Origin: Armatimonadota bacterium
GTDB taxonomy: Bacteria > Armatimonadota > SYMT01
Direction of reading: 5' to 3'
Length of the DNA stretch: 64,000 bases
Assembly: GCA_046292385.1 (NCBI GenBank)
Contig: JBKBRF010000022.1
Span: 32,001-96,000 of the forward strand
In this document: in pieces, positions 12,478-34,608 of the stretch
Position numbering within the stretch: position 1 is the first letter of the stretch
How the letters are laid out: the number at the start of each line of letters is the position of its first letter
Notes under the pieces: generated by a model
What the model was told of the DNA's origin: nothing
Databases searched by the model: none
Seen by the model: the letters and a program-made list of their open reading frames with translations, nothing else
Translations under genes and position numbers: made by a program

Positions 12478-13773
12478 TCAGCGAGAGCGGGCCGTGAGCG
12501 CGCTGAAGACCTCCTCGACGCCGGCCGCCATGCGGGCCACGCTGAACCGGTCCAGGACCGCCTCGCGGCCGGCAGCGCCGAGAGCCCGCGCGCGGTCCGG
12601 GTCGAGGAGCAGCTCTTCGATCGCTTCGGCGAGGGAGAGGGGGTCATCCGGCTCGCACAGTACTCCCCCTCCGGTCTCCGCGATCAGCTCCGGGAACGCC
12701 GCATGACGCGGCTGCACCACCGGTACGCCGGCCGCCAGCGCTTCGAGCACGTAGAGGCCGAACGACTCTCCATAGGTGGCCGGCACGGAGAAGACAGAGA
12801 GCCCGCGCAGGAGCTCGATCTTCTCCTCCCGGCTCACGTTCGGGAGGAACCGCGTATCGGGAGCGAGCCCCTTCTCGGAGAGCCGGTCCTTCATCCGCTC
12901 GACGAACACCTCGTCCGCGGCGGTGCAGGCTCCCGCCACCCGGAGCTGAAGCCGCGGGACGCGGTCCCGCGCGCGGAGGAGCAGGTAGGCCTCCACGAGC
13001 GTCTCCAGCCCCTTGGCGGCGCACATCCGGGCGAGGTACCCGAGCACCGGCGGGTCGGGCCGGGTCGCGGCGGGCGTGTAACCGTCGAGCAGGATGCCGG
13101 GATAGACCGGATGCACCTTCTCCCGCGGCAGGCGAGCCCGGTCGCACATCAGGTCGCCGTAGTAGCGGCTCACCGGGAGGAACGCATTCACGTCCGCGGC
13201 GCGCTCCTGCACCGCGGCCCAGGAGGCGCTCCGCTCCGGCTCCGGGAGCGCGTCGAGGAAGGTGTCCTCTCCCTGCAGCAGGCAGACGATGGCGGCGCCG
13301 GTGCGCTCCTTTAGCCGCCGCGCCAGCCCGAGCAGCAGCGCGTTGGAGAGGCAGATGACGTCCGGCTTGCCTTCGGCCGCCATCCACTCGACCAGCCGCT
13401 CCACTTCCTTCGCCTGGTGGCCCTCTTCTCCGCGCAGCATGGAGAGCGTCAGCTCCCCCAGCTCCCGCGCGCTCGTCATGCCCGCCTTGCGGCCGGCGGC
13501 GCGGAGCAGCGCGGGCGAGTCGAAGAGACGGTCGAGCCAGCGCGGGGTCCGGCGGAAGAGCGACAGCTTCTGCTGCAGGTAGACGTTGATCCCGCCGAAC
13601 AGGACCGGCGTGCCCGCCGTGGCAGGCGGCTCGTCCAGCGCCAGCGGCAGGTACATCGGCACCAGCAGCGCGTCGTGCCCGCGCCGCCGCAGCTCCGAAA
13701 CGAGGGCGTTGTCCCGGATGCAGGTGCCGCAGTAGAAGCTGCCGGTGCCGGCAGTGAGCTGGACGATGCGCAT
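12478..13773 (-). CDS. Glycosyltransferase family 4 (GT-B)
   Basis: ESFGLYVLEALAAGVPVV (ExFG-x4-E motif); N-terminal YCGTC. Confidence 0.9.
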   Translation of the reverse strand: MRIVQLTAGTGSFYCGTCIRDNALVSELRRRGHDALLVPMYLPLALDEPPATAGTPVLFGGINVYLQQKLSLFRRTPRWLDRLFDSPALLRAAGRKAGMTSARELGELTLSMLRGEEGHQAKEVERLVEWMAAEGKPDVICLSNALLLGLARRLKERTGAAIVCLLQGEDTFLDALPEPERSASWAAVQERAADVNAFLPVSRYYGDLMCDRARLPREKVHPVYPGILLDGYTPAATRPDPPVLGYLARMCAAKGLETLVEAYLLLRARDRVPRLQLRVAGACTAADEVFVERMKDRLSEKGLAPDTRFLPNVSREEKIELLRGLSVFSVPATYGESFGLYVLEALAAGVPVVQPRHAAFPELIAETGGGVLCEPDDPLSLAEAIEELLLDPDRARALGAAGREAVLDRFSVARMAAGVEEVFSALTARSR

Positions 13774-14328
13774 TCAGTCCTCGGCGGCGGGAAGCGGCGG
13801 CAAGATCTCCAGCACCTCGGCCAGGGCGGCGCCGTCCGGCCGGGAGAGCACGTTGCGGCGGCCGTAAAGGGTCGCCGGCTCGAAGAGGCCCAGCGCCGCC
13901 GCGATCTCCGGGTTCGGCTCCACCGCGAAGAACCCGCTGGGACAGCTCCCGTGCTCGATCTGGTGGATCGCCAGGATCGTGCCCAGGGGACAGCGGCTCT
14001 CCAGGATGAGCGGACGCGCCGCCTCCGGAAACTGGTCGCAGTGGATCACGATGGCACCGTACTCCACCGCCCGCCCGCTGTCGCCGGTCACCAGCACGAC
14101 CTGCCGCATCAACGCGTCGCCTTCCAGCCGGCGCTCCAGCAGCCGCAGGGAGATTCGCTCACCGTGGAACCGCTCCAGGGTCGGCGTCATATCGCGATCG
14201 TGGACCAGCAGGCCCCGGTACGGCTGGGGCATCTCCGGCCCTTCCACCGGCCGCGCCTGCGGCAGCGGCTTGCCCGCGGCGCGATAGAACGCGTCGAGCG
14301 GGTAGAGCAGCGTGTTCACCGGCTCCAT
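13774..14328 (-). CDS. Chorismate pyruvate-lyase-like (UbiC/DUF98 fold) protein
   Basis: LLVHDRDMTPTLE, RQVVL, PLGTIL, YGRRN, EVLEILPP match the UbiC/UTRA-fold pattern; translationally coupled to neighbours. Confidence 0.65.
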   Translation of the reverse strand: MEPVNTLLYPLDAFYRAAGKPLPQARPVEGPEMPQPYRGLLVHDRDMTPTLERFHGERISLRLLERRLEGDALMRQVVLVTGDSGRAVEYGAIVIHCDQFPEAARPLILESRCPLGTILAIHQIEHGSCPSGFFAVEPNPEIAAALGLFEPATLYGRRNVLSRPDGAALAEVLEILPPLPAAED

Positions 14329-15686
14329 CAGGCGTAGCGGGCGTTCCGGTGCTGCGGAAGGAAGAATTCGTGAAGCAGGCGGTCGGCCTGCAGGAGGCCC
14401 TCACGGTTGAGGCGCAGCTCGTCGCCCTCGATCGAGAGGAAGCCCCAGTCCTGCAGCCGGGCCATCGGCTCGGCAAACTGCTCGGTGATCTCCGCGCCGA
14501 ACTTCTCCCGGAAGTAGCCGGCGTTCACGTGCCCCAGCTTGAACTGCAGGATCAGCTCGCGGATCAGCCGCTCCTCCGCAGTCGGCGTGAGCGCCCGGTA
14601 GATCGGGAGCCGTCCCGCGTCCAGCTCCGCCAGGTACGGCTCCCAGTTGTGCTGGTTCTGGAAGTGCGTTCCGCCCACGTGCGAGAACGAGGCCACGCCG
14701 AGCCCGATCAGGTCGGCGCCGCTCCAGAGGCAGTCGCGATAGAGGAACTGGGTCCGGCTCGGGTCCTTCACGGCGGTGTAGGCGCTCTTGACCGTGTAAC
14801 CGGCCCCTTCCAGCCGCTCGAAGGCATACTGCACCCAGGCGCGCTTCTTCGCCCAGTTCGCCACCGGCGCCACCTCCGCGCCCTGCTCCCTCATCTCCCG
14901 GAAGATGGTGGTGTTGTACGGGATCTCCATCTGGTAGATCGTCACGCTGTCCGGCGCGAGCTCCAGCGTCCGCGATACGGCGCGCTCCCAGCCCTCGTCG
15001 GTGTCCCCCATCATCCCGGCGATCAGGTCGATGTTCACCTGCGGGAAGTCGTTGTCGCGGATGAAGCCGTAGGCGCGGTCGATCTCCTTGGCGCCGTGCG
15101 CGCGTCCGTTCAGCTTCAGCGTGCGCTCGTCGAAGTGCTCCACACCGAGGGAGAGCCGCGTGACGCCCATCTCCCGCAGGAACTTGACCTTCGGCTCGCT
15201 GAGCGTGCCCGGCTCGCACTCGAACGTCACCTCTTCGGCCTCGTCCCACGACAGGAGCTGCTTCATCCCGTCGGTGAGGTAGGTGAGCTGTCGAGTGGAG
15301 AGATACGAGGGCGTGCCGCCCCCGAAGTAGATGAACTTCGGCTTCCGGCCGCCGAGGAACGGCTTCTCCACGTAGAGCGAGAGCTCCCGCAGCGCCGCGT
15401 CGAGGTAGCCCTGGATCTCGGAGGAGTTCTTGTCCGTGTAGACCCGGAAATAGCAGAAGTGGCAGCGGCGGCGGCAGAACGGAATATGGAGGTACTGGCC
15501 CAGGACGGTTCCCGGAGCCGGCTCCCGCTCCAGCGCCGCGCGGGCGTCGGCGGCCTGGTCGGTCGACCAGAACGAGTAAGGGGGGTAGTTGGAGACGAAA
15601 TAGTTGCCTACCCGCGTCTCTTCATCCGATTCGATCTGGATGAGCTGCCCGGCTCCGGTCGTGCTCGTCTGCGCCGCTGTCGACAT
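14328..15686 (-). CDS. HemN/HemW-like (coproporphyrinogen III oxidase family) radical SAM enzyme
   Basis: YLHIPFCRRRCHFC, YFGGGTPS, RLSLGV, VNIDLIAG. Confidence 0.9.
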   Translation of the reverse strand: MSTAAQTSTTGAGQLIQIESDEETRVGNYFVSNYPPYSFWSTDQAADARAALEREPAPGTVLGQYLHIPFCRRRCHFCYFRVYTDKNSSEIQGYLDAALRELSLYVEKPFLGGRKPKFIYFGGGTPSYLSTRQLTYLTDGMKQLLSWDEAEEVTFECEPGTLSEPKVKFLREMGVTRLSLGVEHFDERTLKLNGRAHGAKEIDRAYGFIRDNDFPQVNIDLIAGMMGDTDEGWERAVSRTLELAPDSVTIYQMEIPYNTTIFREMREQGAEVAPVANWAKKRAWVQYAFERLEGAGYTVKSAYTAVKDPSRTQFLYRDCLWSGADLIGLGVASFSHVGGTHFQNQHNWEPYLAELDAGRLPIYRALTPTAEERLIRELILQFKLGHVNAGYFREKFGAEITEQFAEPMARLQDWGFLSIEGDELRLNREGLLQADRLLHEFFLPQHRNARYA

Positions 15687-15728
15687 CGTGCTGGTCCTCT
15701 ATTCGTCCGCCGTCCTCGTGCCGGACCG

Positions 15729-16874
15729 CTACGCGCCGAACGCGTAGACGTAGCCGTCGTTCGCCCCGAAGATCGCCAGGCCGTCCGAAACCGCCGGCGA
15801 GCTCATCACCGGCTGGCCGACTTCGTACGACCACAGCTCCTTGCCGTCCGCCAGGTTAACCAGGTAGACGCGCCCGTCCTCCGAGCCGAAGATCACCTTC
15901 CCGTCCACCACCACCGGCGAGCTATCGACCTTGCCGCGCGTGCGGAAGGTCCAGATCCCCTTGCCGGTCTGGCGATCGATGCAGTGGAGCTGCTTGTCCC
16001 GGCCGCCGATCACGATCCGGCTGCCCACTACCGCCGGCGACGAGAAGTAGGGGAAGTTGCGGTCGCGGTAGGTCCAGAGCACCTTGCCGGCCTGCACGTC
16101 GGCGCAAAGCACCTGGTTGCCGTAGTGCCCCAGGTAAGCATACCGTCCGTCGACCGCCGCTGATCCGGCGATGTAGTCGCCGATCTCGACGTCGCGCACC
16201 CGCTTACCGGTCGCCAGGCTCACCACGTAGAGCTTGCCGTCGCAGCCGCCGAAGATCACCTGCCCGCTGCTGATCGCGGGGGTGCCGTTGACGTAGTTGT
16301 CGGTCTCGTGGGTCCAGACCGCCTTACCGGTCGCCGCATTCACGCAGTGCAGCCGGTTATCGTAGCTGCCCACCAGCACCCAGAGACCTTTACCGCCGGG
16401 GGCCGAAGCGACATTTGCCGCGCCGAGGATCTTGTCCTCGGTCTTGTACCGCCACGCCAGCTTGCCGGTAGCGGCGTTCAGCCCGTAGAGGTAGCCGTCG
16501 TCCGCGCCGATCACCACCACGCTGCCCGCCAGGCACGGCGCCGCTTCGATCTTGCCGCCGGTCTTGTACGACCAAAGCCGCTGACCGTTGCTCTGGCGCA
16601 GCGCGAAGACGGTGCCGTCGCCGCCGCCTACGAAGACCTTCCCGCCGGAGACCACCGCGGTAGCGGCCGGCTGGTTGCCGGTCTTGAACTTCCAGACCGG
16701 CCGGAGCTTGGCCGGAAGCTTTCCGGAGGCGAGGCCGAGCTGCCGGGCGCTCCCGCGGAAAAGCGGCCAGGCGGCACCCGCGGCGCTGGCGGTGCCCGCC
16801 AGCAGCAGGCCGAGCGTGACCCCCGCGAGGGCACGGCGGGTCAGGCGAGGAGGGATGTCGGGGCGTACTTCCAT
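15729..16874 (-). CDS. Secreted PQQ-binding-like (BamB-like) beta-propeller protein 1
   Basis: Signal peptide (LTRR..., AAAWPLFRG); repeated 'xLxAxTGKxxW' and SSP blades; start approximate. Confidence 0.88.
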   Translation of the reverse strand: MEVRPDIPPRLTRRALAGVTLGLLLAGTASAAGAAWPLFRGSARQLGLASGKLPAKLRPVWKFKTGNQPAATAVVSGGKVFVGGGDGTVFALRQSNGQRLWSYKTGGKIEAAPCLAGSVVVIGADDGYLYGLNAATGKLAWRYKTEDKILGAANVASAPGGKGLWVLVGSYDNRLHCVNAATGKAVWTHETDNYVNGTPAISSGQVIFGGCDGKLYVVSLATGKRVRDVEIGDYIAGSAAVDGRYAYLGHYGNQVLCADVQAGKVLWTYRDRNFPYFSSPAVVGSRIVIGGRDKQLHCIDRQTGKGIWTFRTRGKVDSSPVVVDGKVIFGSEDGRVYLVNLADGKELWSYEVGQPVMSSPAVSDGLAIFGANDGYVYAFGA

Positions 16875-16987
16875 GTTCGGGCTCCGTGGCAGATCACCAT
16901 GGTATACGCAAGTACCACGCAACTATGAGGCGAGGCCGGCGTGATGGTTTCGGAACGCCACGAAGACGCAGTACCCCGGGACGCGCT

Positions 16988-17116
16988 TCAGAGGCCGAGC
17001 TCGTCGACCGATTCGGCAAGCAGCGCCCGGTCGATCAGCTCGTCGCAGGCTCGTGAAAACGCCTCGTCGCGGGCTTCTTCCAGCCACTCGGTGATGATGC
17101 CGGCGTCTTTCAACAT
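16988..17116 (-). pseudogene. 42-aa ORF resembling the C-terminus of Rpn/DUF4351-type proteins
   Basis: MLKDAGIITEWLEEARDEAFSRACDELIDRALLAESVDELGL*; weak RBS. Confidence 0.35.
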
Positions 17117-17180
17117 GAGTAAGATCCGTCACGGGCGCGCTGCGCTTCGACGACGTTCCCCTCTCGGGAAACGGTGGCAA

Positions 17181-17539
17181 GTGTCGCACGCTGTAAAGTT
17201 ACGCCGCTGACGGCGCAGGCGGGACTTGCCGCCGTCCGGCGCTCCGGAGGGGCGCGAAATGCTCGGCCGCCTTCGATTTCCCACCCTAGTCATCCTGAAG
17301 GCACTGAAGGATCTACGTCGCCCCGTCTGCGCCGGAGCGGGAGGCTTGACGCACGGAAGGGCACCGGCAGCAGAGTCCGCGTCACCCGCCTGCGTACTCC
17401 GTTCCCTTCCGGCTGCCGAGATCCTTCACTGCGTTCAGGATGACTGGGATGTACGCCGGAGGCAGCCGTTCGTCTCTCCGGATAGAGCGGCAGAACCTAC
17501 GCCGCCCCCCGGGGGCACCAACTTTACAGCGCGCGACAC
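17181..17539. repeat. 20-bp inverted repeats enclosing REP-like doublet copy 2
   Basis: GTGTCGCACGCTGTAAAGTT (17181-17200) / AACTTTACAGCGCGCGACAC (17520-17539), 1 mismatch; inner REP arms at 17289-17319 and 17410-17444. Confidence 0.8.
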
Positions 17540-17634
17540 AAGCTCTCGCCCCCGCGTCAGCGGGGTCCAACACGAAATTCCCTCCACGCCGGGGTGATCC
17601 GAACTGTGCCTTTCAATGCAGCTCGACCGGCTGC

Positions 17635-18807: not shown

Positions 18808-18975
18808 TAGGGTCTAGGGTTCAGGGGCCAGGGTTTAGACCCCAACGGTGGGCGCACCCGGGATCCGTAAGGAGAGCACCGCAGCTAGAAGCTTGAGATT
18901 CGGGTCCAGGGTAGCTCGCGTGAGGCGGCAGTCGTTACCGCAGCCACACCCTGGACCCTGGACCCTAACCCCTAG
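18808..18975. repeat. Inverted pair of heptamer arrays (AGGGTCT/CCCTGGA type)
   Basis: Left arm 18808-18838, right arm 18947-18975; same motif at 29721-29814 and 63211-63241. Confidence 0.7.
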
Positions 18976-22318: not shown

Positions 22319-22374
22319 CTTCGGTCTCGGGCACCAACCTCGCGACACGAGTTCGATTGAGGACTGGTCACTCC

Positions 22375-23533: not shown

Positions 23534-23980
23534 TTACCAGAGGTACCGCTCGTCGTATTCGACTTCGTACTCTCGCAGCAGAGTCAGGTATTCCTCCTGA
23601 AAAGTAAGCTTCCGGTGGTGGGTTTCCTGCCTGGCGATGTAGGAGCGCACTTGAGGAACGTCTCCTACCCCTACGGTGAATGCTCCGTACCCATCCTGCC
23701 ATGCAAAACGGGAGCACCCCTGCACTCCGTGAATCCACTTCGACGATTCGTGCTTCACCTCCCGCAAGAGATCTGAGAGGCGATGTGTCGCTCGGAGCCC
23801 CGCCAGAAGGTGGATGTGATCGGCAACGCCTCCAGCGGCAAGCAGTATGCCGTTCTGACTCCGGATTACTCCGCCCACGTAGGCGTAGAGCCGATCGCGC
23901 CAGTCGCTCTCTAGCCACGGCTCCCGGTTCCTGGTGCTGAAGACGATGTGATACCGAAGCGAGACGTGCGTGGACGACAC
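23534..23980 (-). mobile_element. tnpA: IS200/IS605-family Y1 transposase, probably REP-associated (RAYT-like)
   Basis: YHIVFST, HUH motif DHIHLL, WQDGYGAF, catalytic YI-xx-Q; no tnpB; REP-like repeats upstream. Confidence 0.88.
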
Positions 23981-23992
23981 CGGTCAGTCCTC

Positions 23993-24513: not shown

Positions 24514-24548
24514 GAGAACCTGACGGTGACAGCTCTTCTTCGCGAGGA

Positions 24549-26135
24549 TCACCCACTACTCACCTCCCGCGAGGGAAAGTACCGGTCGATCGTCTTCCGG
24601 CTCGGGGGCGGGGTCAGCAGCGAGACAACCACCACCAGCACGGCGGAGATCACACACATCGGGAGGACCGGCAGGTAGCCGTAGACCGTCACGCTGGCGG
24701 GGCCGCGCAGGAAGAGGTCGCCGAGGGCCGGGAAGATCTGCACCGGCGGCTGGCCGCCCGCGGGGCGCATCGGGTCGCTGAGCGTCTGCAGGTACCAGGT
24801 GCCGAGCACCGCGAAGGTGACCCAGAGCGCGGCGGCGAGGGCGCCCCACTTGGTGCTGCGTTTCCAGAAGAGCGCGGCCAGCATCACCGGGGCCAGGGCG
24901 GCATAGCCGCTGAAGGCGAAGCGGATCGCCAGCTCGAAGATGCCGGCCCGGTCCTTCAGCTGCAGCGCGATGACGTAGGCGGTCAGGGCGATCAGCACTA
25001 CGAAGGCGCGGCCGGTCCAGACCTGCGCCTTGTCGCCGAAGCGCTCTTTGCCGCCGTAGTAGGCGAAGACGTCTTCCGTGAACATCGTCCCGAGCGCCAG
25101 GATCTGGCTGTCGGAGGCCATCACGCACGCCATGATCCCGGCTCCCAGGGCTCCGGCCACCACCGTGTTGGTGTGCTGCGCCAGGAGCTGGATCATGATG
25201 TCGTCCGACTCCCCCGGCTTCAGCCCCGGGATCTGGCTGGCGCCGACCACGCCCAGGTAGACGGCGGGCAGCCAGATGGCGGCGATGCAGAGGGGGTAGA
25301 GGATGACGGTCTTCTTGAAGTGGCCCACCTTCTCCGCCGTCATGCACATGATCGCGATGTGCGGGAACATGATCGAGGAGAGCGGGATGAACATGTAGCT
25401 GAAGAACTCTTCCGGCGTGATCCGCTCGCGGCTCAAGAGCTGCGCGGGCGGCGGCCCGTGCTCCGGCTTGGGGGCGTACTTCAGGCCCTCCATCACCTGG
25501 TCGAAGCCGCCCAGGCTCTTCGCCAGCAGCGTGAGCGCGATGGCGCCGAAGCAGAGGAAGAGCAGCGTCTGGAAGGCGTTCACCCACGCGGTGCCGCGCA
25601 TCCCGCCGAAGAAGACGTAGCTCATCACGACGAGCGCCACGATCCCGCCGCCGACGGCGTAGCTCACCTGCCCGCCGCTGATCGCCTCCAGCGTCTGCCC
25701 GCCGCCCATCACGCCGATGATGATGTACGGCACCAGCATGGCGGCGGTCAGCGCGAAGAGGAAGGTGCCGATCCCGCCGCACTCCCAGCGGTCTCGCAGG
25801 TACTGCACCTGCGTCATGTGGCCGAACCGCTTCCCGAGGCTCCAGAGCCGCGTCCCGATGAAGAAGATCGTCAGCGGGATCACCAGCGCGGAGGAGGAGG
25901 CCATCAGCCCGAAGACGCCGATGCCGCGCTGGTACGACATCCCGGAGCTGCCCAGGATGGCGAACGCGGTCATGTTCGTCCCGAAGAGGGAGAGCAGGAA
26001 GACGACGGGGCCCAGGCTCCGGCTGGCGAGGAAGAAGTCCTCGCCGGACGCCTTGCCGCGGCGGAAGGCGAAGATGCCGATGTAGAGCACCACCGCCAGG
26101 TAGCCGAAGACGATCCACGCGGGGTTGAACGTCAT
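24549..26135 (-). CDS. Sodium:solute symporter family protein
   Basis: [28 protein letters not shown], ~13 TM segments; ATGA overlap with upstream small gene. Confidence 0.92.
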
Positions 26136-26362
26136 GCCGGCCGCTCCCCGCCCTCGCCGACCGTTTCCGCCACTTCCAGCTCGCGCGGCCAGGCGAAGCG
26201 GACCAGCACCCACATCAGCGCCGAGGCGAGCAGGCAGTAGGCGAAGTGATAGGCGAGGCCGATCGGCAGGAAGCCGAAGACGAGGGTCTTATCGGTCCAG
26301 AGCCAGGTGTCCTGGTGCAGCAGGATCACCCCCAGCACCAGAAAGCCGAGCAGCCACTTCAT
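26132..26362 (-). CDS. Small 2-TM SSS-associated membrane protein (DUF3311-like)
   Basis: 76 aa, [21 protein letters not shown], directly upstream of the SSS gene. Confidence 0.8.
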
Positions 26363-28094: not shown

Positions 28095-28102
28095 GAGCGG
28101 CT

Positions 28103-29641
28103 TTACTTACCGATCGCGTAGAGGTGGGTCTGGGTCGCCACGTAGAGCGTGCCGTTCGCCACGATGGGAGAGGAGTAGACCGGCGCGCGCATGTCGATGC
28201 GGCCCAGCTCCTTCATCGTCTTGTCGGCCGCCAGCATGATGATGTCGCCGTCCTCGGTGCCGAAGTAGACCTTGCCGTCCGCCGCCAGGGTGGAGCCCCA
28301 GATGTGACTCTTGGTATCGAAGACCCAGTACGGCTTGCCGGTGTTGGCGTCGAGGCAGTGCACGAAGCCACTGTAGTCGGCGGAGATCACCAGGTCGTTC
28401 ACGATCGATGGCGTGGAGATCGAGCGGGCGATCTTGTCGTAGCACCAGACCACGCCGCTGCCGCTCGCCGCCTTCGCCGGATCGATGCAGACCAGGTTGC
28501 CGACGCCCTCGCCGTGCTCCGGGTCCTGCCCGATGTTGATGAAGACCTTGTTCTTGTAGAAGACCGGCGTGGAGATCACCTCGCTCGGACCATCCGGCAG
28601 CGCGTACTTGATCGGCTTGCCGTCCTTCGTCCGGTAGTGCGGTGGGTTCAGGTCGACCTTCCAGAGCTGCTTCAGAATGTCGAGGCCGTCGTCCGCCTTC
28701 ACCGGGTTCACGTCGTATCCGTAGGCGAAGCCGTCGCCGCCGCCGTAGATGATCTGCCGCTGCCCGTTGACCGTCGCCAGCGTGGGGGACGACCAGTTGC
28801 AGTGCAGGGTGCGGGCGGAGATGCCGTCCGCCTCTTCGGCCATCAGCTCGCCGGTCTGCTTGTTCAGCACCGCAAGGGCCGGCGCCTTGGGGTTCGGGAT
28901 GTTGGTGTGGGTCCAGTCGACGCCGTTGGAAGTCGCCAGCACCACCCGGTCTTCCAGGATCAGCAGCGAGTTGCTGGTGGTGTTGTGCGGGAAGACGCCG
29001 AGCTCTTCGCGCAGGTCGTAGACCCAGATGATGTCCGCGTCTTTCGGGCCGACTTCCATCGCCGGGTTGCCGGGGCCCGCCAGGTACTGGCCTTCCGTCT
29101 TGTAGGGGCCGTCGTTCCCGTTCGCCATCCCGTTCACGTCGAGGCAGATCGCCTCGCAGCGGTTGGTCACCAGGTAGACCCGGTCCCCTTCCACCGCCGG
29201 TGAGGAGCAGATGCCGAGATACTCCCAGTCGCTGACCTTGCCGGTGCCGAGCTTGGGTACGGCAAGCTGCCAGAGCAGCTCCCCGGTCTTCTCGTCGAAA
29301 CACATCACCACGCTGCGGTCGCCGGTCTGCTTCGGGTTGCGCAGGCCTTCGTTGTTGGTGCCGACGAAGACCTTGCCGCCCGCTACGGTCGGGTTGCCGT
29401 ACGACTGCGAGCCGAGCTTGGCCACCCACCGCACGTTCTTGGTGGTGGCCATGTCGATCTCTTCGGTGTTGCCCTTGAAGCGGCCCGGATCCCACTGCTG
29501 CGGGAGCCCGGTCTCGTCCGAGACCATGTTGCGGGAGGAGTCCCGCCCCCACTGCGGCCAGTCGGCCGCGCTGGCGGCGATGGAGAGAGCGCCCAGCGCC
29601 ACCATGGAGGCCACGCCGATCCGCCGGAGCTTCGGTGTCAT
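28103..29641 (-). CDS. Secreted PQQ-binding-like beta-propeller protein 3
   Basis: Signal peptide ASA-ADWPQWGR; repeated 'CxDxxTGxxxW' blades. Confidence 0.88.
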   Translation of the reverse strand: MTPKLRRIGVASMVALGALSIAASAADWPQWGRDSSRNMVSDETGLPQQWDPGRFKGNTEEIDMATTKNVRWVAKLGSQSYGNPTVAGGKVFVGTNNEGLRNPKQTGDRSVVMCFDEKTGELLWQLAVPKLGTGKVSDWEYLGICSSPAVEGDRVYLVTNRCEAICLDVNGMANGNDGPYKTEGQYLAGPGNPAMEVGPKDADIIWVYDLREELGVFPHNTTSNSLLILEDRVVLATSNGVDWTHTNIPNPKAPALAVLNKQTGELMAEEADGISARTLHCNWSSPTLATVNGQRQIIYGGGDGFAYGYDVNPVKADDGLDILKQLWKVDLNPPHYRTKDGKPIKYALPDGPSEVISTPVFYKNKVFINIGQDPEHGEGVGNLVCIDPAKAASGSGVVWCYDKIARSISTPSIVNDLVISADYSGFVHCLDANTGKPYWVFDTKSHIWGSTLAADGKVYFGTEDGDIIMLAADKTMKELGRIDMRAPVYSSPIVANGTLYVATQTHLYAIGK

Positions 29642-29720
29642 ACTCTGTCTTCCTCGGTGCCCGGTGCCCGCCGACCGATCGGCCTAGCAGCGAGCGGAGA
29701 GTCGTGCTTCTCAAGTGGAA

Positions 29721-29814
29721 GAGGGTGTAGGGTGTAGGGTCCAGGGTATGGCGGCGGTGCGGCTTCGCCGCGGCTCCGGCCCCCTGGACCCTACACCCTA
29801 CACCCTGGCCCCTA
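29721..29814. repeat. Inverted pair of heptamer arrays (AGGGTGT/CCCTACA type)
   Basis: Left arm 29721-29748, right arm 29781-29814. Confidence 0.7.
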
Positions 29815-32115
29815 CTTGTTCGGGGTAACGGAGATGTTGTCTACGTAGACGGAGAACTTGCTCTGCGGCGCGAAGCCGAAGATGCCGGGAGCGCCTTCCT
29901 GGTGCGCATTCTTGTGCGGGACCTCGAGGGTCCACGCCGCCGGCTCCGCGTCGCCCTTCTTCCACACCTTCGCGCGGACCATGCCGGCGCCGTCCGGAGC
30001 CACGTCGACGCGGGTGACCATCCGGTACCAGACCTTCGGCTGCCACGCGAACGGCACCGCCACCTTGAGCCGCTCGTGGTTGGAGCTCACTTCCAGCTCC
30101 TGCGAGTTACCGCTCAACGCGATGGCATACCGCTGGTTGATCAGGCCGATCGTCGACTGGCTCCGCCGGTTGCCGTCCGACATCACGTCCGCTTCCAGGG
30201 TGTAGCTGCGGGTCTCCGGCTGACTAAGGAAGAGCATCGACCGCTGAAAGAGCGGATTGTCCAGCGTCTTTGCCAGCACCTTGTTGCCGTCGATCTCCCG
30301 CACGTCCCACTTGAAGCGGGCGCCGATCCACGGGAGCGGCGGGTAGGCGAACTTCACCGGCGGCGTATCCATCGTCGTCTCGGTGAGCTCCATCCCTTCG
30401 AAGTCCTGCTTCAGCGGGAGGCCCGGCAGGATGCGGCCGCGGAAGGTGCCCTTCAGGTCGCCGACCGTCGCCTGGAACGCCCCCGCGGAGGGGGTGAGCG
30501 CCGCGTCCGCCACCAGCTCGCCCTGCGCGTTGAAGCTGGCGTTCATCTCGGAGCGGACGCGGGCGGTCGGCGGGATGAATTTTGCCCACTTCACCTGGTT
30601 CGCCGGGTAAACGCCGGTCACGACGCCGTTCGCGTCGATCCCACGCACCCGGAACTTCTGCGTCTCACCCGGCCGCAGCGTCACCTCATTCGGGATCACC
30701 TGCAGCGCCACCGCGGGGCCCGGCTTCGGGGCCGCGGCTTCCGGCGCCGGCCGCGGGGGCTGTCCGCCGCTGCGGCTGCCGAAGCAGTAGACCTTCTCGG
30801 TGCTGGTGACGTAGACCTTGCCGTTCCAGACCGCCGGCGCGCCGAGGCACTGCCCCTCGAGCTGCACCTTGGTCAGCTCTTCCACGCCGGTGTCGGTCGG
30901 CTTCAGGATGTAGAACAGGCCGTTGGTGACCGGCACGTAGAGCTTGCCGTCCGCGTAGAGCGGGGAGGCGTGGAGCTCGTCCGGACCGAGCCGGTGCTCC
31001 CACTGGATCTTGCCGGTGTTGGCGTCGACCGCGTAGAGGATGCCCTTGCTCGACATCTGGTAGATGCGGTCACCGACCAGCACGGGCGAGGTCGAAAAGG
31101 CGCCGAGGTTATTGCGCCAGACTTCCGCGCCTTTGTCCAGCACCGGCGTGCCGCCGCCTTCGGCCGGCTTCGCCGCCGCGTTGATGTTGACGGCGATCAT
31201 CCGGCCGATCTCGGAGGTGTCGAGGTTCTCCGCATCGTGGATCGCGATCGCTTTGTCCTTGTGGAGCACGACCGACGAGTTGATCCCACCCGCCGACATC
31301 GGGTACTTCCAGATCGGCTGCCCGGTGCGCACGTTCACGCAGACCAGGTTTCCGCAGCCGGTGCCGGTGTACATCACCCGCTTGCCGTCCTTCCACGCCA
31401 GCAGCGGCGGCGCGAAGGAGTTGTCCTTCGGCCGGTCGCCGGGGGTGGAGGCCCACACGAGATCACCCGTGCGCTTGTCGTACGCGTAGAAGCGGTCCGC
31501 CGCCGGCCCTTCCGCGCCCCAGTTGCTGGTGATGGCGCGGATGATCACCAGGTCGCCGTCGATGATGGCGGAGCCGGTGCGGCCGTTCGGAAAGGTGAGG
31601 CGGCCCAGGTCCTCCATCAGGGAGTGACCCCACTGCCGCTTTCCATCGCCGGAGAAGCAGGCGAACTCACCCGCGGAGCTGAGGACGTAGACGTTCCCGG
31701 TCTCCGGATCGACGGTGGGACTGCCGATCGAGTACCGGTTGTAGATGATGTCGCTCAGGAAGTCGTTGAAATAGTGCGCCCACTGCCGCTGGCCGGTGTT
31801 GGCGTCCATGCAGACGAGCGCCTCGCGCAGGTCCGGCCCGTCGCCCTCGTAGCCGAAGACGTAGAGCTTGCCGTTGGCGACCACCGGCGTGCCGCGGGCG
31901 GCGAGCTTGACATCCCAGAGGTGGTTTTCACCCCCCGGCTTCCAGACCGAGGGCAGGCCCTTCTCGGCGGAGGTGCCGTCCTGCTGCGGCCCGCGCCAGG
32001 ATAGCCAGCCGGTCGCTTTGGCCTGCGCGGCGGCGCCGGAGACGGCGCACACCCCGGCCAGAGAGAGCGCCAGGCCCGAAACCAGGGCCACTGGCAGCGA
32101 CTTCATCTTCCCCAT
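29812..32115 (-). CDS. Secreted PQQ-binding-like beta-propeller protein 4 with C-terminal Ig-like/beta-sandwich domains
   Basis: GGAGAGGAG RBS; signal peptide; WLSWRGP; propeller repeats then ~300-aa beta-rich tail. Confidence 0.85.
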   Translation of the reverse strand: MGKMKSLPVALVSGLALSLAGVCAVSGAAAQAKATGWLSWRGPQQDGTSAEKGLPSVWKPGGENHLWDVKLAARGTPVVANGKLYVFGYEGDGPDLREALVCMDANTGQRQWAHYFNDFLSDIIYNRYSIGSPTVDPETGNVYVLSSAGEFACFSGDGKRQWGHSLMEDLGRLTFPNGRTGSAIIDGDLVIIRAITSNWGAEGPAADRFYAYDKRTGDLVWASTPGDRPKDNSFAPPLLAWKDGKRVMYTGTGCGNLVCVNVRTGQPIWKYPMSAGGINSSVVLHKDKAIAIHDAENLDTSEIGRMIAVNINAAAKPAEGGGTPVLDKGAEVWRNNLGAFSTSPVLVGDRIYQMSSKGILYAVDANTGKIQWEHRLGPDELHASPLYADGKLYVPVTNGLFYILKPTDTGVEELTKVQLEGQCLGAPAVWNGKVYVTSTEKVYCFGSRSGGQPPRPAPEAAAPKPGPAVALQVIPNEVTLRPGETQKFRVRGIDANGVVTGVYPANQVKWAKFIPPTARVRSEMNASFNAQGELVADAALTPSAGAFQATVGDLKGTFRGRILPGLPLKQDFEGMELTETTMDTPPVKFAYPPLPWIGARFKWDVREIDGNKVLAKTLDNPLFQRSMLFLSQPETRSYTLEADVMSDGNRRSQSTIGLINQRYAIALSGNSQELEVSSNHERLKVAVPFAWQPKVWYRMVTRVDVAPDGAGMVRAKVWKKGDAEPAAWTLEVPHKNAHQEGAPGIFGFAPQSKFSVYVDNISVTPNK

Positions 32116-32276: not shown

Positions 32277-33494
32277 CTACTTGCCGCGAACGTCCACGCA
32301 GGTCACCACACCCTGGTGGCTGCGGGCGTAGATCCGGCCGTTCGCCAGCGTGGGCGAGGTCCAGTACGTCCCGCGTCCCAGGCGCGCCCGGGCCAGCTCC
32401 GTGTACTTCTGCGGGGTGGCCTGGACCACCAGCAGCTCGCCCCGCTCCGTCAGTACGATCAGTTTGCCGTCCGCGGAGATCAGGCCTCCCTTGCCCATTC
32501 CACGCTCGCGCCAGCGCTCCTGCCCGGTCTTCCAGTCGATGCACTTCAGCGTGTTCTGATCGTTGCCGAAGAGCGCCCCGGCCACCAGCACGCAGCTATT
32601 GAAGTGGTTGCGCATGTTCCGGTTCTGCCAGACCGGCTTCGGCCGGCCGCCGGCGAGATTCAGCAGCGCGCCGCCCTTCTCGTAGTTCGAGGAGATGAAG
32701 ACGCTTCCGCCGGAGAAGATCGGATCGGCCGCGTTCACGTCGTAGGAGGTCTGCCAGGGGAAGCTCCAGAGCCGGCGGCCGTTGGCCGGGTTCACCGCCA
32801 CCAGCCCCTCCGCGGTGAAGAGCGCCACGCCCTTCTGGGTGCCGGCCGTAAACGGCAGCGGCGAGGAGTAGCCCGCGGTGCCGCCGCCGCTCTTCCAGAG
32901 CACGCTGCCGCGCCCGTCCAGCGCGATGCCCGCCGTTCCGACGTTGTAGAGGACGCGGCCCTCGTGCACCAGCGGCGAGCCGGCGAAGCCCCACCGCGGC
33001 ACGGCGGCGCCGGTCTCCCGCCGCAGGTCCTTGCCCCAGATCCGGCGGCCGGTGGCGGCATCCAGGCAGAGCGCGTGCCCTTCCCGGCTCAGGGTGTAGA
33101 CAACGTTTCCGTCGAGGGTCGGCGCCGCCCGCGGGCCGCCGTAGTCGCCCGCGGCGCAGGCGTAGGAGTACTTCCAGACCGGCCGGCCGGTATTGGCGTC
33201 CAGGCAGTAGACGGTGTCCTGCCCGTTGGCATTCCCCAGCGTGTAGAGCCGGTTGCCGCGCACGGAGACGGCGGAGAAGCCCTCCCCCACGTTCGCCGTC
33301 CAGAGCTGCTTCGGCCCGGCACCGGGCCAGCGAGAGAGCCACCCCTTCTCCGCGGAGATGCCGGTCCGCTGCGGCCCCCGCCACTGCGGCCAATCCGCCG
33401 CGGCGGCGGGAAGCACCGCTCCCAGCACGAGCAGCGGCACGAGCGCCAGGCGCCGGGAGCCGCCGGGACGGAGCTGAATCGGAATGCGTGTCAT
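32277..33494 (-). CDS. Secreted PQQ-binding-like beta-propeller protein 5
   Basis: Signal peptide AAA-ADWPQWRGP; propeller repeats; WTSPTLANGRIYAR. Confidence 0.88.
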   Translation of the reverse strand: MTRIPIQLRPGGSRRLALVPLLVLGAVLPAAAADWPQWRGPQRTGISAEKGWLSRWPGAGPKQLWTANVGEGFSAVSVRGNRLYTLGNANGQDTVYCLDANTGRPVWKYSYACAAGDYGGPRAAPTLDGNVVYTLSREGHALCLDAATGRRIWGKDLRRETGAAVPRWGFAGSPLVHEGRVLYNVGTAGIALDGRGSVLWKSGGGTAGYSSPLPFTAGTQKGVALFTAEGLVAVNPANGRRLWSFPWQTSYDVNAADPIFSGGSVFISSNYEKGGALLNLAGGRPKPVWQNRNMRNHFNSCVLVAGALFGNDQNTLKCIDWKTGQERWRERGMGKGGLISADGKLIVLTERGELLVVQATPQKYTELARARLGRGTYWTSPTLANGRIYARSHQGVVTCVDVRGK

Positions 33495-33589
33495 CCTCTC
33501 ACCTCACCGTCTACAGGAACGCCCGGACCGCAAGGCTCCAACCCGCCGCACGGCGGCTCCCAAGCATCCGGTGGAGACGCGGACGTCCA

Positions 33590-33601
33590 TCGTAATTACG
33601 A
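33590..33601. promoter_or_regulatory. Candidate operator palindrome TCGTAATTACGA
   Basis: Perfect AT-rich 12-bp palindrome ~95 bp upstream of the first beta-propeller gene. Confidence 0.3.
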
Positions 33602-33741
33602 GCCGCGCGAGCGAAGCTCACGACCGCAAATGAATCGCAATATGCTCCCGTTCGGCAAGCGCCGCGCTGGGGCCTGCGCTCTCGCGGTTTACCGAAGCGC
33701 GCGATCTCGCCGGGCCCGGCGGTCCTCCGACGAGGGCAGGC

Positions 33742-34608
33742 CTACCACCGGATCTCCGGGGGGAAGTACTCCGCGATCAGCTCCCGGTAGTACGGCGTCA
33801 GCGCCGCCACGTCCGGGCGGTCCTCGCCTTTGGAGTAGAGGTCGTACGGGTTGAAGGCGCGCACCCAGGGGAGTAGCTCCCGGTCCCGGGCGTCGGTCAG
33901 GTGGGTGTAGGCGCCTTCGCGGTGCCAGGCGTAGAACGAGTGGAAGCGGATCATCGCCAGCGCTTCGGCGGGCAGGTACTCCTTCACCACCTGGTAGAGG
34001 TACTCGTCGTGGCCCCAGGAGAGGTGGACCCGGTCCAGGCCGATGCCTTCTTCATAGATTCCGCAGGGGGTCTGGTACGCCGGCACCTGTGCGTCCGGGT
34101 TCTCCGCGAAGAGCTCCGGGAAGACGACGCGCTCCGAAAAGGCGCAGCCGACCGGGAACGTGTCCCCCACCACCGCCCACTGCGGCTCCCCGAAGAAGCA
34201 GAGCACCTTGCCGAGGTCGTGGATCAGGCCGGTGAGGATGAACCAGCGCGGGTGCCCGTCGCGGCGGATCGCCTCCGCCGTCTGCATCAGGTGCTCAATC
34301 TGGGAGAGGTCGGTATCCGGGTCGCTGTCGTCGACCAGCGTGTTCAGCCACTCCATCGCCTCCCAGATCCCCATCCGGCGGCGGTCGAGCGACAGGTACT
34401 CCGCCTTCTTGCCGCGGACGAACTCCAGTGTCTGGTGACGGTGGTTGAGCCGGTAGAACTCCTTCACGCTCGGACGCGCCTCCGCGCGATAGTCGCGGAA
34501 CGCCTCCGGCGCCTTCCCGCCCGCCGCGGGGTAGCGCAGCTGGGGCACCGTCTCCCAGTCGTCGAGATCCGCGAGCGGGGTGGTCGGGGCGGACTCAGTG
34601 GGTTCCAT
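33742..34608 (-). CDS. miox: Myo-inositol oxygenase (HD-fold di-iron)
   Basis: [60 protein letters not shown]. Confidence 0.93.

Follow-up and report, generated by a model that had tools for sequence, protein, structure and literature searches.

Does a run of 17 minus-strand genes, in which five exported propellers accompany an aryl-acid reductase, a radical SAM enzyme and a glycosyltransferase, encode a single system, and if so, what would that system make or handle? The genes (Table 1) lie in a window of 64,000 nucleotides, the whole stretch of DNA analysed, from an Armatimonadota genome. A first-pass annotation had proposed that they convert chorismate via an aryl acid and aldehyde to a benzyl alcohol, which is then tailored, glycosylated and transported, possibly as a cofactor or ligand for the propellers, and this interpretation is partly supported by the findings below. 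Gene calling recovers the 17 consecutive genes it had listed between positions 12478 and 34608, Pfam and NCBIfam profile matches agree with its family assignments, and the coupling it had noted is evident at four junctions, where a stop codon overlaps or directly adjoins the next start (DUF3311/SSS, hypothetical/propeller 4, radical SAM/UbiC-like and UbiC-like/GT4). Its gene list required amendment in two respects. The conserved system takes in 14 of the 17, not all of them, and it extends to genes on other contigs of this genome that encode a flavin halogenase, a PaaK-like ligase, a 4HBT thioesterase and a MacB-type ABC exporter. The system is undescribed; our literature searches returned no description of its like.

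Table 1. Genes of the locus in order of transcription (positions in the window)
Gene	Coordinates	Strand	Profile match and remarks
Myo-inositol oxygenase (MIOX)	33742..34608	-	MIOX, E 5e-114; neighbour only
Propeller 1, 405 aa	32277..33494	-	PQQ_2, E 6e-34; variable member
Propeller 2, ~767 aa	29812..32115	-	PQQ_2, E 9e-30
Propeller 3, 512 aa, eight blades	28103..29641	-	Best conserved propeller
MFS transporter, 514 aa	26415..27959	-	MFS_1
DUF3311 small membrane subunit of symporter	26132..26362	-	DUF3311, E 5e-10; stop overlaps SSS start
Sodium:solute symporter (SSS), 528 aa	24549..26135	-	SSF, E 3e-42
IS200-like Y1 transposase (tnpA, RAYT-like)	23534..23980	-	Y1_Tnp, E 2e-21; insertion
EhpF/GriC-type adenylating enzyme, 356 aa	22375..23445	-	Short AMP-binding protein without ANL C-terminal domain
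Hypothetical ORF, ~200 aa	21737..22348	-	Insertion specific to this genome
Propeller 4, 418 aa	20484..21740	-	PQQ_2, E 8e-39; variable, chiefly Armatimonadota loci
EhpG/GriD-type ALDH-fold reductase, 476 aa	18972..20402	-	Divergent Aldedh, E 3e-13
Iron-type alcohol dehydrogenase (Fe-ADH), 390 aa	17635..18807	-	Fe-ADH, E 3e-49
Propeller 5, 381 aa	15729..16874	-	PQQ_2, E 1e-46; PQQ_2/BamB-like
HemN-like radical SAM enzyme, 452 aa	14328..15686	-	Radical_SAM and HemN_C; stop overlaps UbiC-like start
Chorismate-lyase-fold (DUF98/UbiC-like) protein, 184 aa	13774..14328	-	Optional de novo module
GT4 glycosyltransferase, 431 aa	12478..13773	-	Glycos_transf_1, E 5e-30; universal set

That the gene system is real is confirmed by its order, which recurs across related loci beyond chance. 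We compared 80 related loci from other genomes, taking as denominators those loci with a flank of sufficient length. The core order (propeller 2, propeller 3, an SSS or MFS importer, the EhpF-like adenylase, the EhpG-like reductase and the Fe-ADH) recurs in Armatimonadota, Verrucomicrobiota, Lentisphaerota and Planctomycetota. The reductase keeps its place in 45 of 56 loci and propeller 3 in 49 of 61; Fe-ADH lies downstream of the reductase in 38 of 52, propeller 2 is found upstream in 42 of 54, and an SSS or MFS gene precedes the adenylase in 45 of 69. Propeller 5 is retained in the same order less widely (19/40), as are the radical SAM, UbiC-like and GT4 genes (7/38 each).

Clustering of these genes in other genomes, which the first-pass annotation had put forward as the check on its proposal, is accompanied by co-occurrence. 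Across a sample of 151 genomes from the phylum of the window, two nested sets of parts emerge, the larger present in 13 genomes and the smaller in nine of these, counts that come from four related families of one phylum, in which related genomes are not independent. The larger set comprises the EhpF-like adenylase that defines the 13 genomes, propellers 3 and 5, the GT4 enzyme and the permease of the MacB-type ABC exporter. Orthologues of propeller 3 (at least 60% identity), propeller 5 (at least 50%) and GT4 (at least 51%) occur in all 13 and also in G063, the only one of the 138 other genomes to carry the GT4 orthologue. The permease shows 48-64% identity in 11 of the 12 other carriers, 40% in G091, whose copy is part of the cluster, and 52% over a partial match in G063. 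Each member of the smaller set (the UbiC-like protein, the radical SAM enzyme, the halogenase and the PaaK-like ligase) is found in nine of the 13 EhpF-positive genomes and in none of the 138 others. Co-occurrence holds even in genomes such as G026 and G036, where the parts are dispersed over large contigs. In Verrucomicrobiota, the two carriers among 121 genomes were too few to repeat the co-occurrence test. Given that about 20 genomes without EhpF have distant versions of the permease, propeller 5 and GT4 genes (34-43% identity), with the permease adjoining a propeller in three of them, these three may have a broader role in the envelope and be merely borrowed here.

The adenylase is a full-length homologue of EhpF, as had been suspected, aligning over residues 14-356 with PDB 3L2K/3HGU (E 1.6e-52). 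Species genomes contain 562 adenylase-related stretches; 120 homologues among the matches listed are 72-87% identical, and identity ranges from 57 to 87% across the four phyla. The ALDH fold claimed for the reductase is likewise evident from its end-to-end alignment with the ALDH encoded after the ehpF homologue of a phenazine cluster (26% identity, E 4e-39), and an ALDH of a haloarchaeal plasmid can also be aligned with it over the full length. Residues C290 and N166 are invariant in 48 sequences, as is H254 within an HGPG stretch. A model of the complex between the EhpF-like and EhpG-like proteins scored 0.79, compared with 0.33 for the best control, a mark attained by 58 of the 80 solved complexes and two of the 110 mismatched pairs; these counts apply only roughly because the model was built on our own alignments. 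At least 78% of contacts were common to the runs, the partners had pLDDT values of at least 91, and the predicted interface places reductase residues 17-48 against adenylase residues 205-270. The modelling supports the prediction that the two proteins bind each other. Elsewhere, plasmid-borne EhpF homologues, some of which NCBI names arylcarboxylate reductase, adjoin ALDH genes within aromatic pathways (phenazine and aminodeoxychorismate-type clusters), and at some loci the EhpF/EhpG pair stands alone amid unrelated genes. One report describes GriC/GriD as adenylating 3,4-AHBA and then reducing it to the aldehyde (PMC10179220).

Genes of the smaller set could supply a hydroxybenzoate-type acid. 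The UbiC-like protein matched nothing in Pfam at E values up to 5, including both chorismate-lyase models, and its AF2 model (pLDDT 94) has the chorismate-lyase/DUF98 fold that had been proposed for it. Foldseek places it closest to the DUF98 protein AF1396 (2NWI; TM 0.66/0.76), with UbiC (1G81) at TM 0.55/0.60, and its homologues carry the JGI name chorismate-pyruvate lyase. Because the fold is also that of the ligand-binding domains of GntR regulators, the protein could bind its ligand rather than cleave it. The radical SAM gene occurs in the same nine genomes, adjoining the UbiC-like gene; in metagenome loci it is directly upstream of that gene in 39 of 43 cases and is itself preceded by propeller 5 in 18 of 33. 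The enzyme falls under all NCBIfam cut-offs (best match the STM4012 family, 179 versus 380 bits), and any reaction ascribed to it would be a guess. The motifs WxWxIP and GxGxxG, which are marks of halogenases, are present in all 32 scored halogenase orthologues and in the copy of this genome, and the best NCBIfam match is CmlS. Some metagenome loci present the system in contiguous form, in the order propeller 5, radical SAM, UbiC-like, halogenase, GT4, thioesterase, PaaK-like ligase and ABC exporter. A pairing of chorismate lyase with a flavin halogenase that acts on 4-hydroxybenzoate is described in one source (PMC10579414), and another reports that the DUF98-type enzyme Rv2949c produces p-hydroxybenzoate, which is then activated by an AMP ligase (PMC7205293).

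An acid could also be taken up from outside. The start of the SSS gene was corrected to position 26135. The MFS protein best matches the aromatic acid/H+ symport family of NCBIfam (100 bits, under the cut-off), and in some genomes MFS takes the position of SSS, an orthologue lying upstream of the adenylase at six loci (L051, L055, L057, L061, L071 and L072). A haloarchaeal plasmid likewise carries an SSS-EhpF-ALDH triad, with an SSS homologous to that of our locus. Given that the importers adjoin the reductase and that the de novo branch is optional, uptake of the acid would be at least as central as its synthesis from chorismate.

All five propellers are PQQ_2/BamB-like, and their N-termini read by eye as Sec-type signal peptides; those of propeller 5 orthologues read as Sec-type or lipoprotein-type, not Tat-type. 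Propeller 3 has a mean column identity of 63% in an alignment of 51 sequences, with many invariant His, Asp, Asn and Glu residues, and its AF2 model (pLDDT 90) is similar in fold to YxaL, BamB, tetrathionate hydrolase and PQQ dehydrogenases. A 535-aa ORF (28107-29714) was rejected as the third propeller, being an off-frame shadow of the 512-aa frame. For propeller 2 the most probable start is the ATG at 32115, preceded by a GGAGAGGAG box; the C-terminal part of this protein (~315 aa) has no Pfam match and yields only an Atlas lead (Big_2/Laminin_G, score 0.89).

With these characteristics in mind, the window appears to contain the greater part of a conserved system by which an aromatic compound is made or salvaged. 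We propose, with about an even chance of being correct, that the optional module makes a hydroxybenzoate-type acid, which may be halogenated, and that the universal module brings it in, reduces and glycosylates it, and exports the result for use with the propellers. Most likely, the UbiC-like protein, PaaK-like CoA ligase, halogenase, radical SAM enzyme and thioesterase would convert chorismate to a tailored, probably halogenated, acid of this kind; alternatively, the acid would enter through the SSS/DUF3311 or MFS importer. The EhpF-like enzyme would adenylate it, and the bound EhpG-like partner would reduce the acyl-adenylate to an aldehyde by means of its conserved cysteine. Fe-ADH would then form a benzyl-type alcohol, which GT4 may glycosylate. 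The GT4 enzyme has a CxxC motif at its N-terminus and lies under every NCBIfam equivalog cut-off, and its family matches give no pointer to the acceptor. The product would leave through the MacB-type exporter, and the Sec-exported propellers would bind or act on it. Which acid is used, in what order the steps run, what GT4 glycosylates, which way the transporters work and whether the propellers take part at all are matters of inference; the one observation that points to the product as a putative propeller cofactor or ligand is the genome-level co-inheritance of propellers with enzymes.

Importers beside a biosynthetic reductase are unusual, and catabolism fits this arrangement as well. The propellers might be extracellular enzymes that free or modify plant or humic aromatic acids, which would be imported, reduced to less toxic alcohols, glycosylated and exported, a catabolic or detoxifying route that we consider unlikely. 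An importer directly upstream of the reductase in so many loci, an MFS protein nearest to aromatic-acid symporters, and the absence of the de novo module from four of the 13 carriers are all in keeping with it. So is the haloarchaeal plasmid, whose triad is located next to an IclR regulator and an amine oxidase. The invariant polar residues of propeller 3 are enzyme-like, and cofactor-free propeller enzymes such as tetrathionate hydrolase (Z 28.6) exist. However, nine of the 13 carriers have the chorismate-lyase-fold protein, halogenase and CoA ligase, which no other genome sampled possesses, and this points to synthesis. Moreover, ring-cleavage and hydroxylase genes are absent from the conserved order, and the route would spend ATP and two reducing equivalents while gaining neither carbon nor energy.

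We judge it quite unlikely that the locus is an ordinary specialised-metabolite cluster for a halogenated phenolic glycoside serving as antibiotic or signal, with propellers and importers that are accessory (for self-protection or re-uptake) or unrelated. An adenylase this similar across four phyla is unusually constrained for secondary metabolism, and it is inherited together with propellers 3 and 5 even where the genes are unlinked. Such a cluster would nevertheless account for the plasmid homologues of EhpF/EhpG and GriC/GriD, all of which lie in antibiotic-type aromatic clusters, for a gene complement (chorismate lyase, halogenase, thioesterase, ligase and exporter) that is typical of pathways to halogenated phenols, and for the MarR regulator that adjoins the halogenase in this genome. 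However, four carriers lack the synthesis genes yet retain those for import, reduction, GT4 and the propellers, and thus a needed compound is a better fit than a weapon.

It is very improbable that the 17 genes are merely unrelated operons on one strand, since a 1103-bp gap around the transposase, another of 760 bp between Fe-ADH and propeller 5 (713 bp if the longest ORF is taken), two inserted genes, and promoter and terminator scans no better than shuffles are outweighed by an order kept in 80 loci, four phyla and metagenome loci and by co-inheritance at the genome level, which contradict this view for 14 genes and leave it standing only for MIOX, the transposase and the hypothetical gene. 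These three had been counted as members, but neither MIOX nor the transposase has a match in the 80 loci, and the three matches to the hypothetical gene reflect out-of-frame overlap with the adenylase gene rather than true counterparts. GC3 is 0.70 for the transposase and 0.71 for the hypothetical gene, compared with 0.87-0.95 for the other 15 genes. The hypothetical ORF has a weak Pfam match to DUF6188 (E 0.047), and REP-like inverted repeats (24030-24082 and 24422-24474) are located beside the transposase.

A common sample of 151 genomes from the window's phylum was searched for nine proteins of the system, whose presence and absence form a nested pattern (see the table). Genomes that encode the EhpF-like adenylase, hereafter called carriers, keep a universal set in which the GT4 glycosyltransferase and an ABC exporter occur together with the exported propellers 3 and 5. 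An optional set, which comprises the UbiC-like protein, the HemN-like radical SAM protein (rSAM), a halogenase and a PaaK-like ligase, is confined to a subset of the same genomes. The first-pass annotation had proposed profiling the co-occurrence of such proteins across genomes, and within the window's phylum the parts do co-occur in the 13 carriers. EhpF was not found in one further genome with several of the parts, G063, which is an assembly of 660 contigs. In two carriers assembled into few, large contigs (G026 and G036), the parts lie hundreds of kilobases apart or on separate contigs, yet all are retained. The carriers span four families, although related genomes are not independent, and in two of these families the positives are one genus or one genome only, which argues against simple vertical inheritance. 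Among 121 sampled Verrucomicrobiota genomes EhpF was found in only two, too few to repeat the co-occurrence test. Distant permease, propeller-5-like and GT4-like genes (34-43% identity) are also present in about 20 genomes without EhpF (e.g. G027, G071 and G103), in three of which an FtsX-type permease directly adjoins a propeller. This distant set may represent an older envelope module that lent parts to the present system.

All 17 genes of the cluster lie on the minus strand, and start and stop codons abut or overlap at four junctions. Pfam and NCBIfam matches bear out the gene list of the first-pass annotation, namely GT4, a HemN-like rSAM, five PQQ_2/BamB-like propellers, an iron-dependent alcohol dehydrogenase (Fe-ADH), a divergent ALDH fold, an AMP-binding protein, a Y1 transposase, an SSS symporter with DUF3311, an MFS transporter and MIOX. 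The AMP-binding protein is 356 aa long, and a 184-aa protein that lacks any family is also encoded. Propeller 3 is the 512-aa frame, to which an adjoining 535-aa ORF is an off-frame shadow, and propeller 2 probably starts at 32115. The N-termini of the propellers, when read by eye, look like Sec signal peptides.

Homologues of the adenylase number in the thousands (72-87% identity among the 120 matches listed), and a scan using one genome per species yielded 562 related stretches. The best 80 of these loci, which come from Armatimonadota, Verrucomicrobiota, Lentisphaerota and Planctomycetota, were compared with all window proteins by tblastn, and those nearest to the window carry an Armatimonadota label, which places the window probably in the same phylum. 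The recurrent order is (propeller 1), propeller 2, propeller 3, SSS or MFS transporter, adenylase, (propeller 4), ALDH, Fe-ADH, (propeller 5), (rSAM, UbiC-like, GT4), where parentheses mark genes that are not always present. The EhpF/EhpG pair stands alone at three loci, at one of which Fe-ADH is also found. A promoter and terminator scan returned one promoter-like and 11 terminator-like sites, a count not above that of shuffled sequence. No Rfam match at E <= 0.1 was obtained in 11000-37000, and thus there is no riboswitch clue in this interval.

Features of the cluster and of related sites. Coordinates refer to the window unless a contig or locus is named. Conserved order: loci among the best 80 of 562, with denominators restricted to loci with enough flank. 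Metagenome: loci among 80 fetched by a UbiC-like profile, with denominators restricted likewise.
Feature	Position	Strand	Conserved order	Metagenome	Genomes of the phylum
Beta-carbonic anhydrase (downstream flank)	11800-12477	convergent			
Whole cluster	12478-34608	-			
GT4	12478-13773	-	7/38	17/31	13/13 carriers + G063 (at least 51% identity)
UbiC-like (184 aa)	13774-14328	-	7/38		9, all EhpF-positive; 0/138 others
rSAM	14328-15686	-	7/38	39/43	same 9; 0/138 others
Propeller 5	15729-16874	-	19/40	18/33	13/13 carriers + G063 (at least 50% identity)
Fe-ADH/propeller 5 gap	16875-17634				
Inverted-repeat pairs in this gap	17181-17200/17520-17539; 17282-17314/17419-17451				
Fe-ADH	17635-18807	-	38/52		
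Inverted repeat, ALDH/Fe-ADH gap	18937-18973				
ALDH-fold reductase	18972-20402	-	45/56		
Propeller 4	20484-21740	-			
Hypothetical ORF	21737-22348	-			
Adenylase (EhpF-like)	22375-23445	-		5/22 (same locus)	13/151
Symporter/adenylase interval	23446-24548				
Y1 transposase	23534-23980	-			
REP-like 53-nt inverted repeats	24030-24082; 24422-24474				
Transporter (SSS or MFS)			45/69		
Propeller 3	28103-29641	-	49/61		13/13 carriers + G063 (at least 60% identity)
Propeller 2/propeller 3 gap repeat	29722-29806				
Propeller 2	29812-32115	-	42/54		
Propeller 1	32277-33494	-			
282-aa protein (upstream flank)	34799-35647	-			
MarR + flavin halogenase (L093)	C12:143100-145038 (contig end)			26/42 (halogenase)	same 9; 0/138 others (halogenase)
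Thioesterase, PaaK-like ligase, ABC ATPase, permease (L094)	C10:85663-93105			11/26 (thioesterase); 9/22 (PaaK-like)	PaaK-like: same 9; 0/138 others. Permease: 48-64% identity in 11 of the other 12 carriers; 40% in G091 (inside cluster); 52%, partial, in G063
SSS-EhpF-like-ALDH triad, Halalkalicoccus jeotgali plasmid 2	L084:6508-10566				
EhpF/GriC homologue with futalosine genes, Streptomyces angustmyceticus plasmid	L083:5823-12044				

The adenylase is a full-length counterpart of EhpF. A phmmer search against the PDB aligned its residues 14-356 with residues 22-366 of the 366 in EhpF (3L2K/3HGU, E 1.6e-52), and because the 356-aa protein stops at the same point as EhpF, it lacks the ANL C-terminal domain. 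Pfam AMP-binding matches over residues 188-291 only, with no match to AMP-binding_C. The ALDH-fold gene lies directly downstream at 45 of the 56 loci, and the same layout is seen in phenazine-type and Streptomyces plasmid clusters. On plasmids, homologues of the adenylase occur inside aromatic clusters, some of them of phenazine type, and in each case an ALDH-family gene comes next; NCBI gives some of these homologues the name arylcarboxylate reductase. The ALDH-fold protein and the ALDH encoded beside an ehpF homologue align along their entire lengths (26% identity over 472 columns, E 4e-39), and the former is 28% identical to a haloarchaeal partner. Residues C290, within GRSC(I)NAS, and N166 are invariant in 48 orthologues, as is one His in an HGPG stretch. 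C290 aligns with the Cys of the EhpG homologue and, going by ALDH motifs, is presumably the catalytic nucleophile. The Pfam matches of the adenylase and of the ALDH-fold protein at E <= 0.01 included neither LuxE nor LuxC.

A predicted complex of the two proteins supports the binding of the adenylase to the reductase. The model scored 0.79 compared with 0.33 for the best control, and the mark applied to such scores is reached by 58 of 80 solved complexes and two of 110 mismatched pairs, counts that are only rough given that the alignments used were our own. At least 78% of contacts are common to the runs, the partner pLDDT is 91 or higher, and in the model an N-terminal stretch of the reductase (residues 17-48) touches residues 205-270 of the adenylase.

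A route from acid through acyl-AMP to aldehyde is proposed for the pair, in keeping with GriC/GriD (PMC10179220) and, reportedly, with the EhpF structure study. The pair resembles EhpF/EhpG (D-alanylgriseoluteic acid, Pantoea) and GriC/GriD (grixazone, Streptomyces griseus), which are two-protein aryl carboxylate reductases, in possessing an adenylase that matches EhpF over its full length and likewise lacks the ANL C-terminal domain, and a following ALDH-fold partner with end-to-end homology. For GriC/GriD, one paper describes adenylation of 3,4-AHBA followed by reduction to the aldehyde (PMC10179220). However, the phenazine and 3,4-AHBA genes of those clusters are absent here, and the pair is instead joined to an importer, Fe-ADH, GT4 and exported propellers. 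Moreover, the adenylase is far more conserved, with 57-87% identity across phyla compared with 35-39% to plasmid homologues.

Two plasmid loci place homologues of the pair in other settings. On the Halalkalicoccus jeotgali plasmid, all three members of an SSS-EhpF-like-ALDH triad are homologous to window proteins, and the neighbouring genes encode an SDR, an IclR regulator and a primary-amine oxidase. This haloarchaeal triad argues that the link between importer and reductase predates the propeller cluster. On the Streptomyces angustmyceticus plasmid, a homologue annotated as 'arylcarboxylate reductase' sits amid genes of the futalosine pathway (MqnE, MqnC and 1,4-dihydroxy-6-naphthoate synthase), a setting which suggests that this homologue reduces a naphthoate.

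The UbiC-like protein has no Pfam match even at E <= 5. Its AlphaFold2 model, built with 36 homologues, has a pLDDT of 94, and Foldseek places first the DUF98 protein AF1396 (2NWI, E 6e-8, TM 0.66/0.76), then UTRA domains of GntR regulators, and then E. coli chorismate lyase UbiC (1G81, E 2.5e-4, TM 0.55/0.60). A profile of the 36 homologues likewise reaches DUF98 2NWI at E 0.0015, JGI labels homologues as chorismate-pyruvate lyase, and residues R75, E52, R157 and E174 are invariant. Thus, the UbiC-like label assigned in the first-pass annotation holds at the level of a predicted chorismate-lyase/UTRA fold. At two metagenome loci of near-identical gene content, a lone UbiC-like gene is found amid unrelated genes.

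The rSAM scores below the cut-offs for HemN (172 of 325), HemW (158 of 205), HutW (169 of 400) and STM4012 (179 of 380), and these identities are rejected. Judged by its sequence, which includes a CxxxCxxC motif, it is a separate HemN-like subfamily. NCBIfam and the Atlas yielded generic GT4 names only for the glycosyltransferase, and hence gave no clue to its acceptor.

The system extends beyond the window. Loci of Planctomycetota, Verrucomicrobiota and Lentisphaerota have a gene for a flavoprotein of the Trp_halogenase family between the UbiC-like and GT4 genes, and a 4HBT thioesterase gene follows GT4. In 80 metagenome loci fetched with a profile of the UbiC-like protein, the contiguous form of the cluster reads propeller 5, rSAM, UbiC-like, (halogenase), GT4, thioesterase, PaaK-like ligase and ABC ATPase. 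The window's own genome carries the missing parts at two sites on other contigs, one with MarR and halogenase genes and the other with the thioesterase, the PaaK-like ligase, the ABC ATPase and a 1154-aa FtsX/MacB-type permease. Given that the two metagenome loci best matching the window (L095 and L099) hold GT4, thioesterase, ligase and ABC genes in one row, the cluster of this genome is split over three contigs. Near the sites on the other contigs of this genome, a sulfatase gene is located on the opposite strand.

The halogenase matches Pfam Trp_halogenase at E 1e-26, and both this copy and all 32 of the 32 orthologues scored contain WxWxIP and GxGxxG, which we take to be marks of flavin halogenases. 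Its best NCBIfam match is the chloramphenicol halogenase CmlS, at 211 bits and under the cut-off of 900.

Several known systems share features with this assembly. The end products of the mycobacterial Rv2949c/FadD22 route are glycosylated phenolics. Here, a chorismate-lyase-fold protein is co-inherited with a WxWxIP flavin halogenase and an aryl-acid-activating ligase, which is comparable with that route and with the routes to halogenated phenols of the Bmp5/Bmp6 system and the 4-BP cluster. In one published precedent, a chorismate lyase is paired with a flavin halogenase whose substrate is 4-hydroxybenzoate (PMC10579414), and another report describes a DUF98-type lyase and an AMP ligase in mycobacterial phenolic glycolipid formation, where 4-hydroxybenzoate is made from chorismate and then adenylated (PMC7205293). 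Unlike these routes, the present system lacks a P450, a polyketide synthase and a carrier protein, the acid would be reduced rather than decarboxylated or extended, an extra HemN-like rSAM is present, and the lyase does not match a Pfam lyase model.

The qhp operon for maturation of quinohemoprotein amine dehydrogenase combines a radical SAM protein, a halogenase-like flavoprotein, an ABC exporter and a periplasmic propeller subunit. The same kinds of part are combined here, and the flavoprotein scores 128 bits against NCBIfam QhpG (cut-off 240). However, this flavoprotein scores higher to CmlS, the rSAM has a HemN_C tail and no SPASM-type match in Pfam and NCBIfam scans, and the ORF lists, as read without a dedicated search, contain no gene for a small precursor peptide. 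We therefore treat the resemblance as an analogy only and do not claim membership.

A further parallel concerns chemical logic. White-rot fungi reduce (chlorinated) anisate or hydroxybenzoate to the aldehyde and alcohol inside the cell, and the alcohol feeds extracellular oxidoreductases, while an engineered gastrodin pathway uses UbiC, a carboxylic acid reductase and an ADH before the alcohol is glycosylated. Reduction in the cell followed by use or glycosylation of the alcohol is the common element. However, the enzyme families and organisms are different, and any oxidation by the propellers here would be hypothetical.

Propeller 3 is predicted to be eight-bladed (pLDDT 90), and it is 53-70% identical to 50 aligned orthologues, with many invariant His, Asp, Asn and Glu residues. 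Its fold neighbours in Foldseek and VIA-align searches, at 12-22% identity, are a mixture of scaffolds (BamB, YxaL), designed propellers and enzymes (tetrathionate hydrolase, PQQ dehydrogenases), and they do not discriminate between functions. The eight-blade fold is common to PedH, XoxF and ADH (Z 27-28). The BamB equivalog TIGR03300 was considered and rejected, since propeller 5 scores 174 bits and the other propellers 51-70, all under the cut-off of 285. The PQQ dehydrogenase model TIGR03075 gives 32-95 bits against a cut-off of 480. No PqqC match was obtained in this 98%-complete genome, which does not prove absence given that control genomes are silent as well, and no PqqE match rises above its cut-off in the same genome. 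A preprint states that many bacteria import PQQ (10.64898/2026.07.10.737718), and its uptake from outside is possible. For propeller 5, Tat export was also considered on account of an RR pair at the N-terminus in the window, but 39 orthologues show ordinary Sec or lipoprotein N-termini by eye, and this option is rejected. The C-terminal part of propeller 2 has no Pfam match, and its Atlas lead, Big_2/Laminin_G, is under 0.9.

Taken together, the optional set could lead from chorismate to a tailored hydroxybenzoate-type acid by way of the lyase-fold protein, the CoA ligase, the halogenase, the thioesterase and the HemN-like rSAM. By means of the universal set, the acid would be imported, reduced in two steps, glycosylated and exported. 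Carriers that lack the optional set would have to obtain the acid externally, and this tentatively favours a needed compound, both made and salvaged, over a weapon or plain catabolism. A more specific proposal, which we put forward as speculative and rather unlikely, is that the compound acts as a small redox cofactor, shuttle or prosthetic group for exported propellers with eight blades, which would form a new enzyme class that shares the quinoprotein fold without relying on PQQ. Some lineages would make the compound, a halogenated or methylated hydroxybenzyl glycoside, from chorismate, and others would only import its oxidised acid form, re-reduce it with EhpF, EhpG and Fe-ADH, re-glycosylate it and export it through the ABC system. 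The compound would then be a public good, much like a vitamin, that some members of the four phyla produce and others scavenge.

Several hundred species in these phyla carry the system; most are uncultured bacteria of soil and water, known for their many unexplained PQQ-like propellers. Tying two of the best-conserved of these propellers to a defined small-molecule pathway offers a first experimental handle on their role. Two-protein carboxylate reductases of the EhpF/GriC type are rare, and this would be the first used outside antibiotic pathways. The nested distribution also predicts cross-feeding of an aromatic compound, since all carriers would import and process it and only some would make it. 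No description of the system was found in open-access papers or bioRxiv. The present analysis contributes the nested presence and absence pattern, the observation that propellers, GT4 and exporter are co-inherited with the reductase even when unlinked, a test of the fold of the UbiC-like protein, a modelled contact between adenylase and reductase, and the three-contig split of the cluster.

Not every gene in the row belongs to the system. MIOX, which the first-pass annotation had listed in the row, was matched at none of the 80 loci. The hypothetical ORF and the Y1 transposase, also listed there, are insertions, with GC3 values of 0.71 and about 0.70, respectively, compared with 0.87-0.95 in the 15 other genes; the sole matches of the ORF among the 80 loci are out-of-frame overlaps with the adenylase gene. 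This ORF of about 200 aa, situated between the adenylase and propeller 4 genes, has a weak DUF6188 match and a single genomic copy, and its stop overlaps the propeller 4 start. The transposase is IS200-like (GC3 0.70 compared with about 0.93 in neighbouring genes), separates the symporter gene from the adenylase gene and is flanked on one side by the REP-like repeats. This interval resembles a RAYT/REP insertion by which the operon is interrupted.

Other intergenic regions have features of their own. The gap between propellers 2 and 3 contains a perfect 25-nt inverted repeat with GGGTGTA/ACCCTGG-type units, and a related copy occurs in the ALDH/Fe-ADH gap; both may be intergenic hairpin elements. 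The 760-bp gap between Fe-ADH and propeller 5 has two inverted-repeat pairs, no frame with coding-like GC3 and no Rfam match, and it could house an internal promoter or an RNA of no known family. Upstream of the cluster, the 282-aa protein is encoded on the same strand, has an N-terminus that is hydrophobic and signal-like, and matches a FIMAH domain weakly, and downstream the cluster is bordered by a convergent gene for a beta-carbonic anhydrase.
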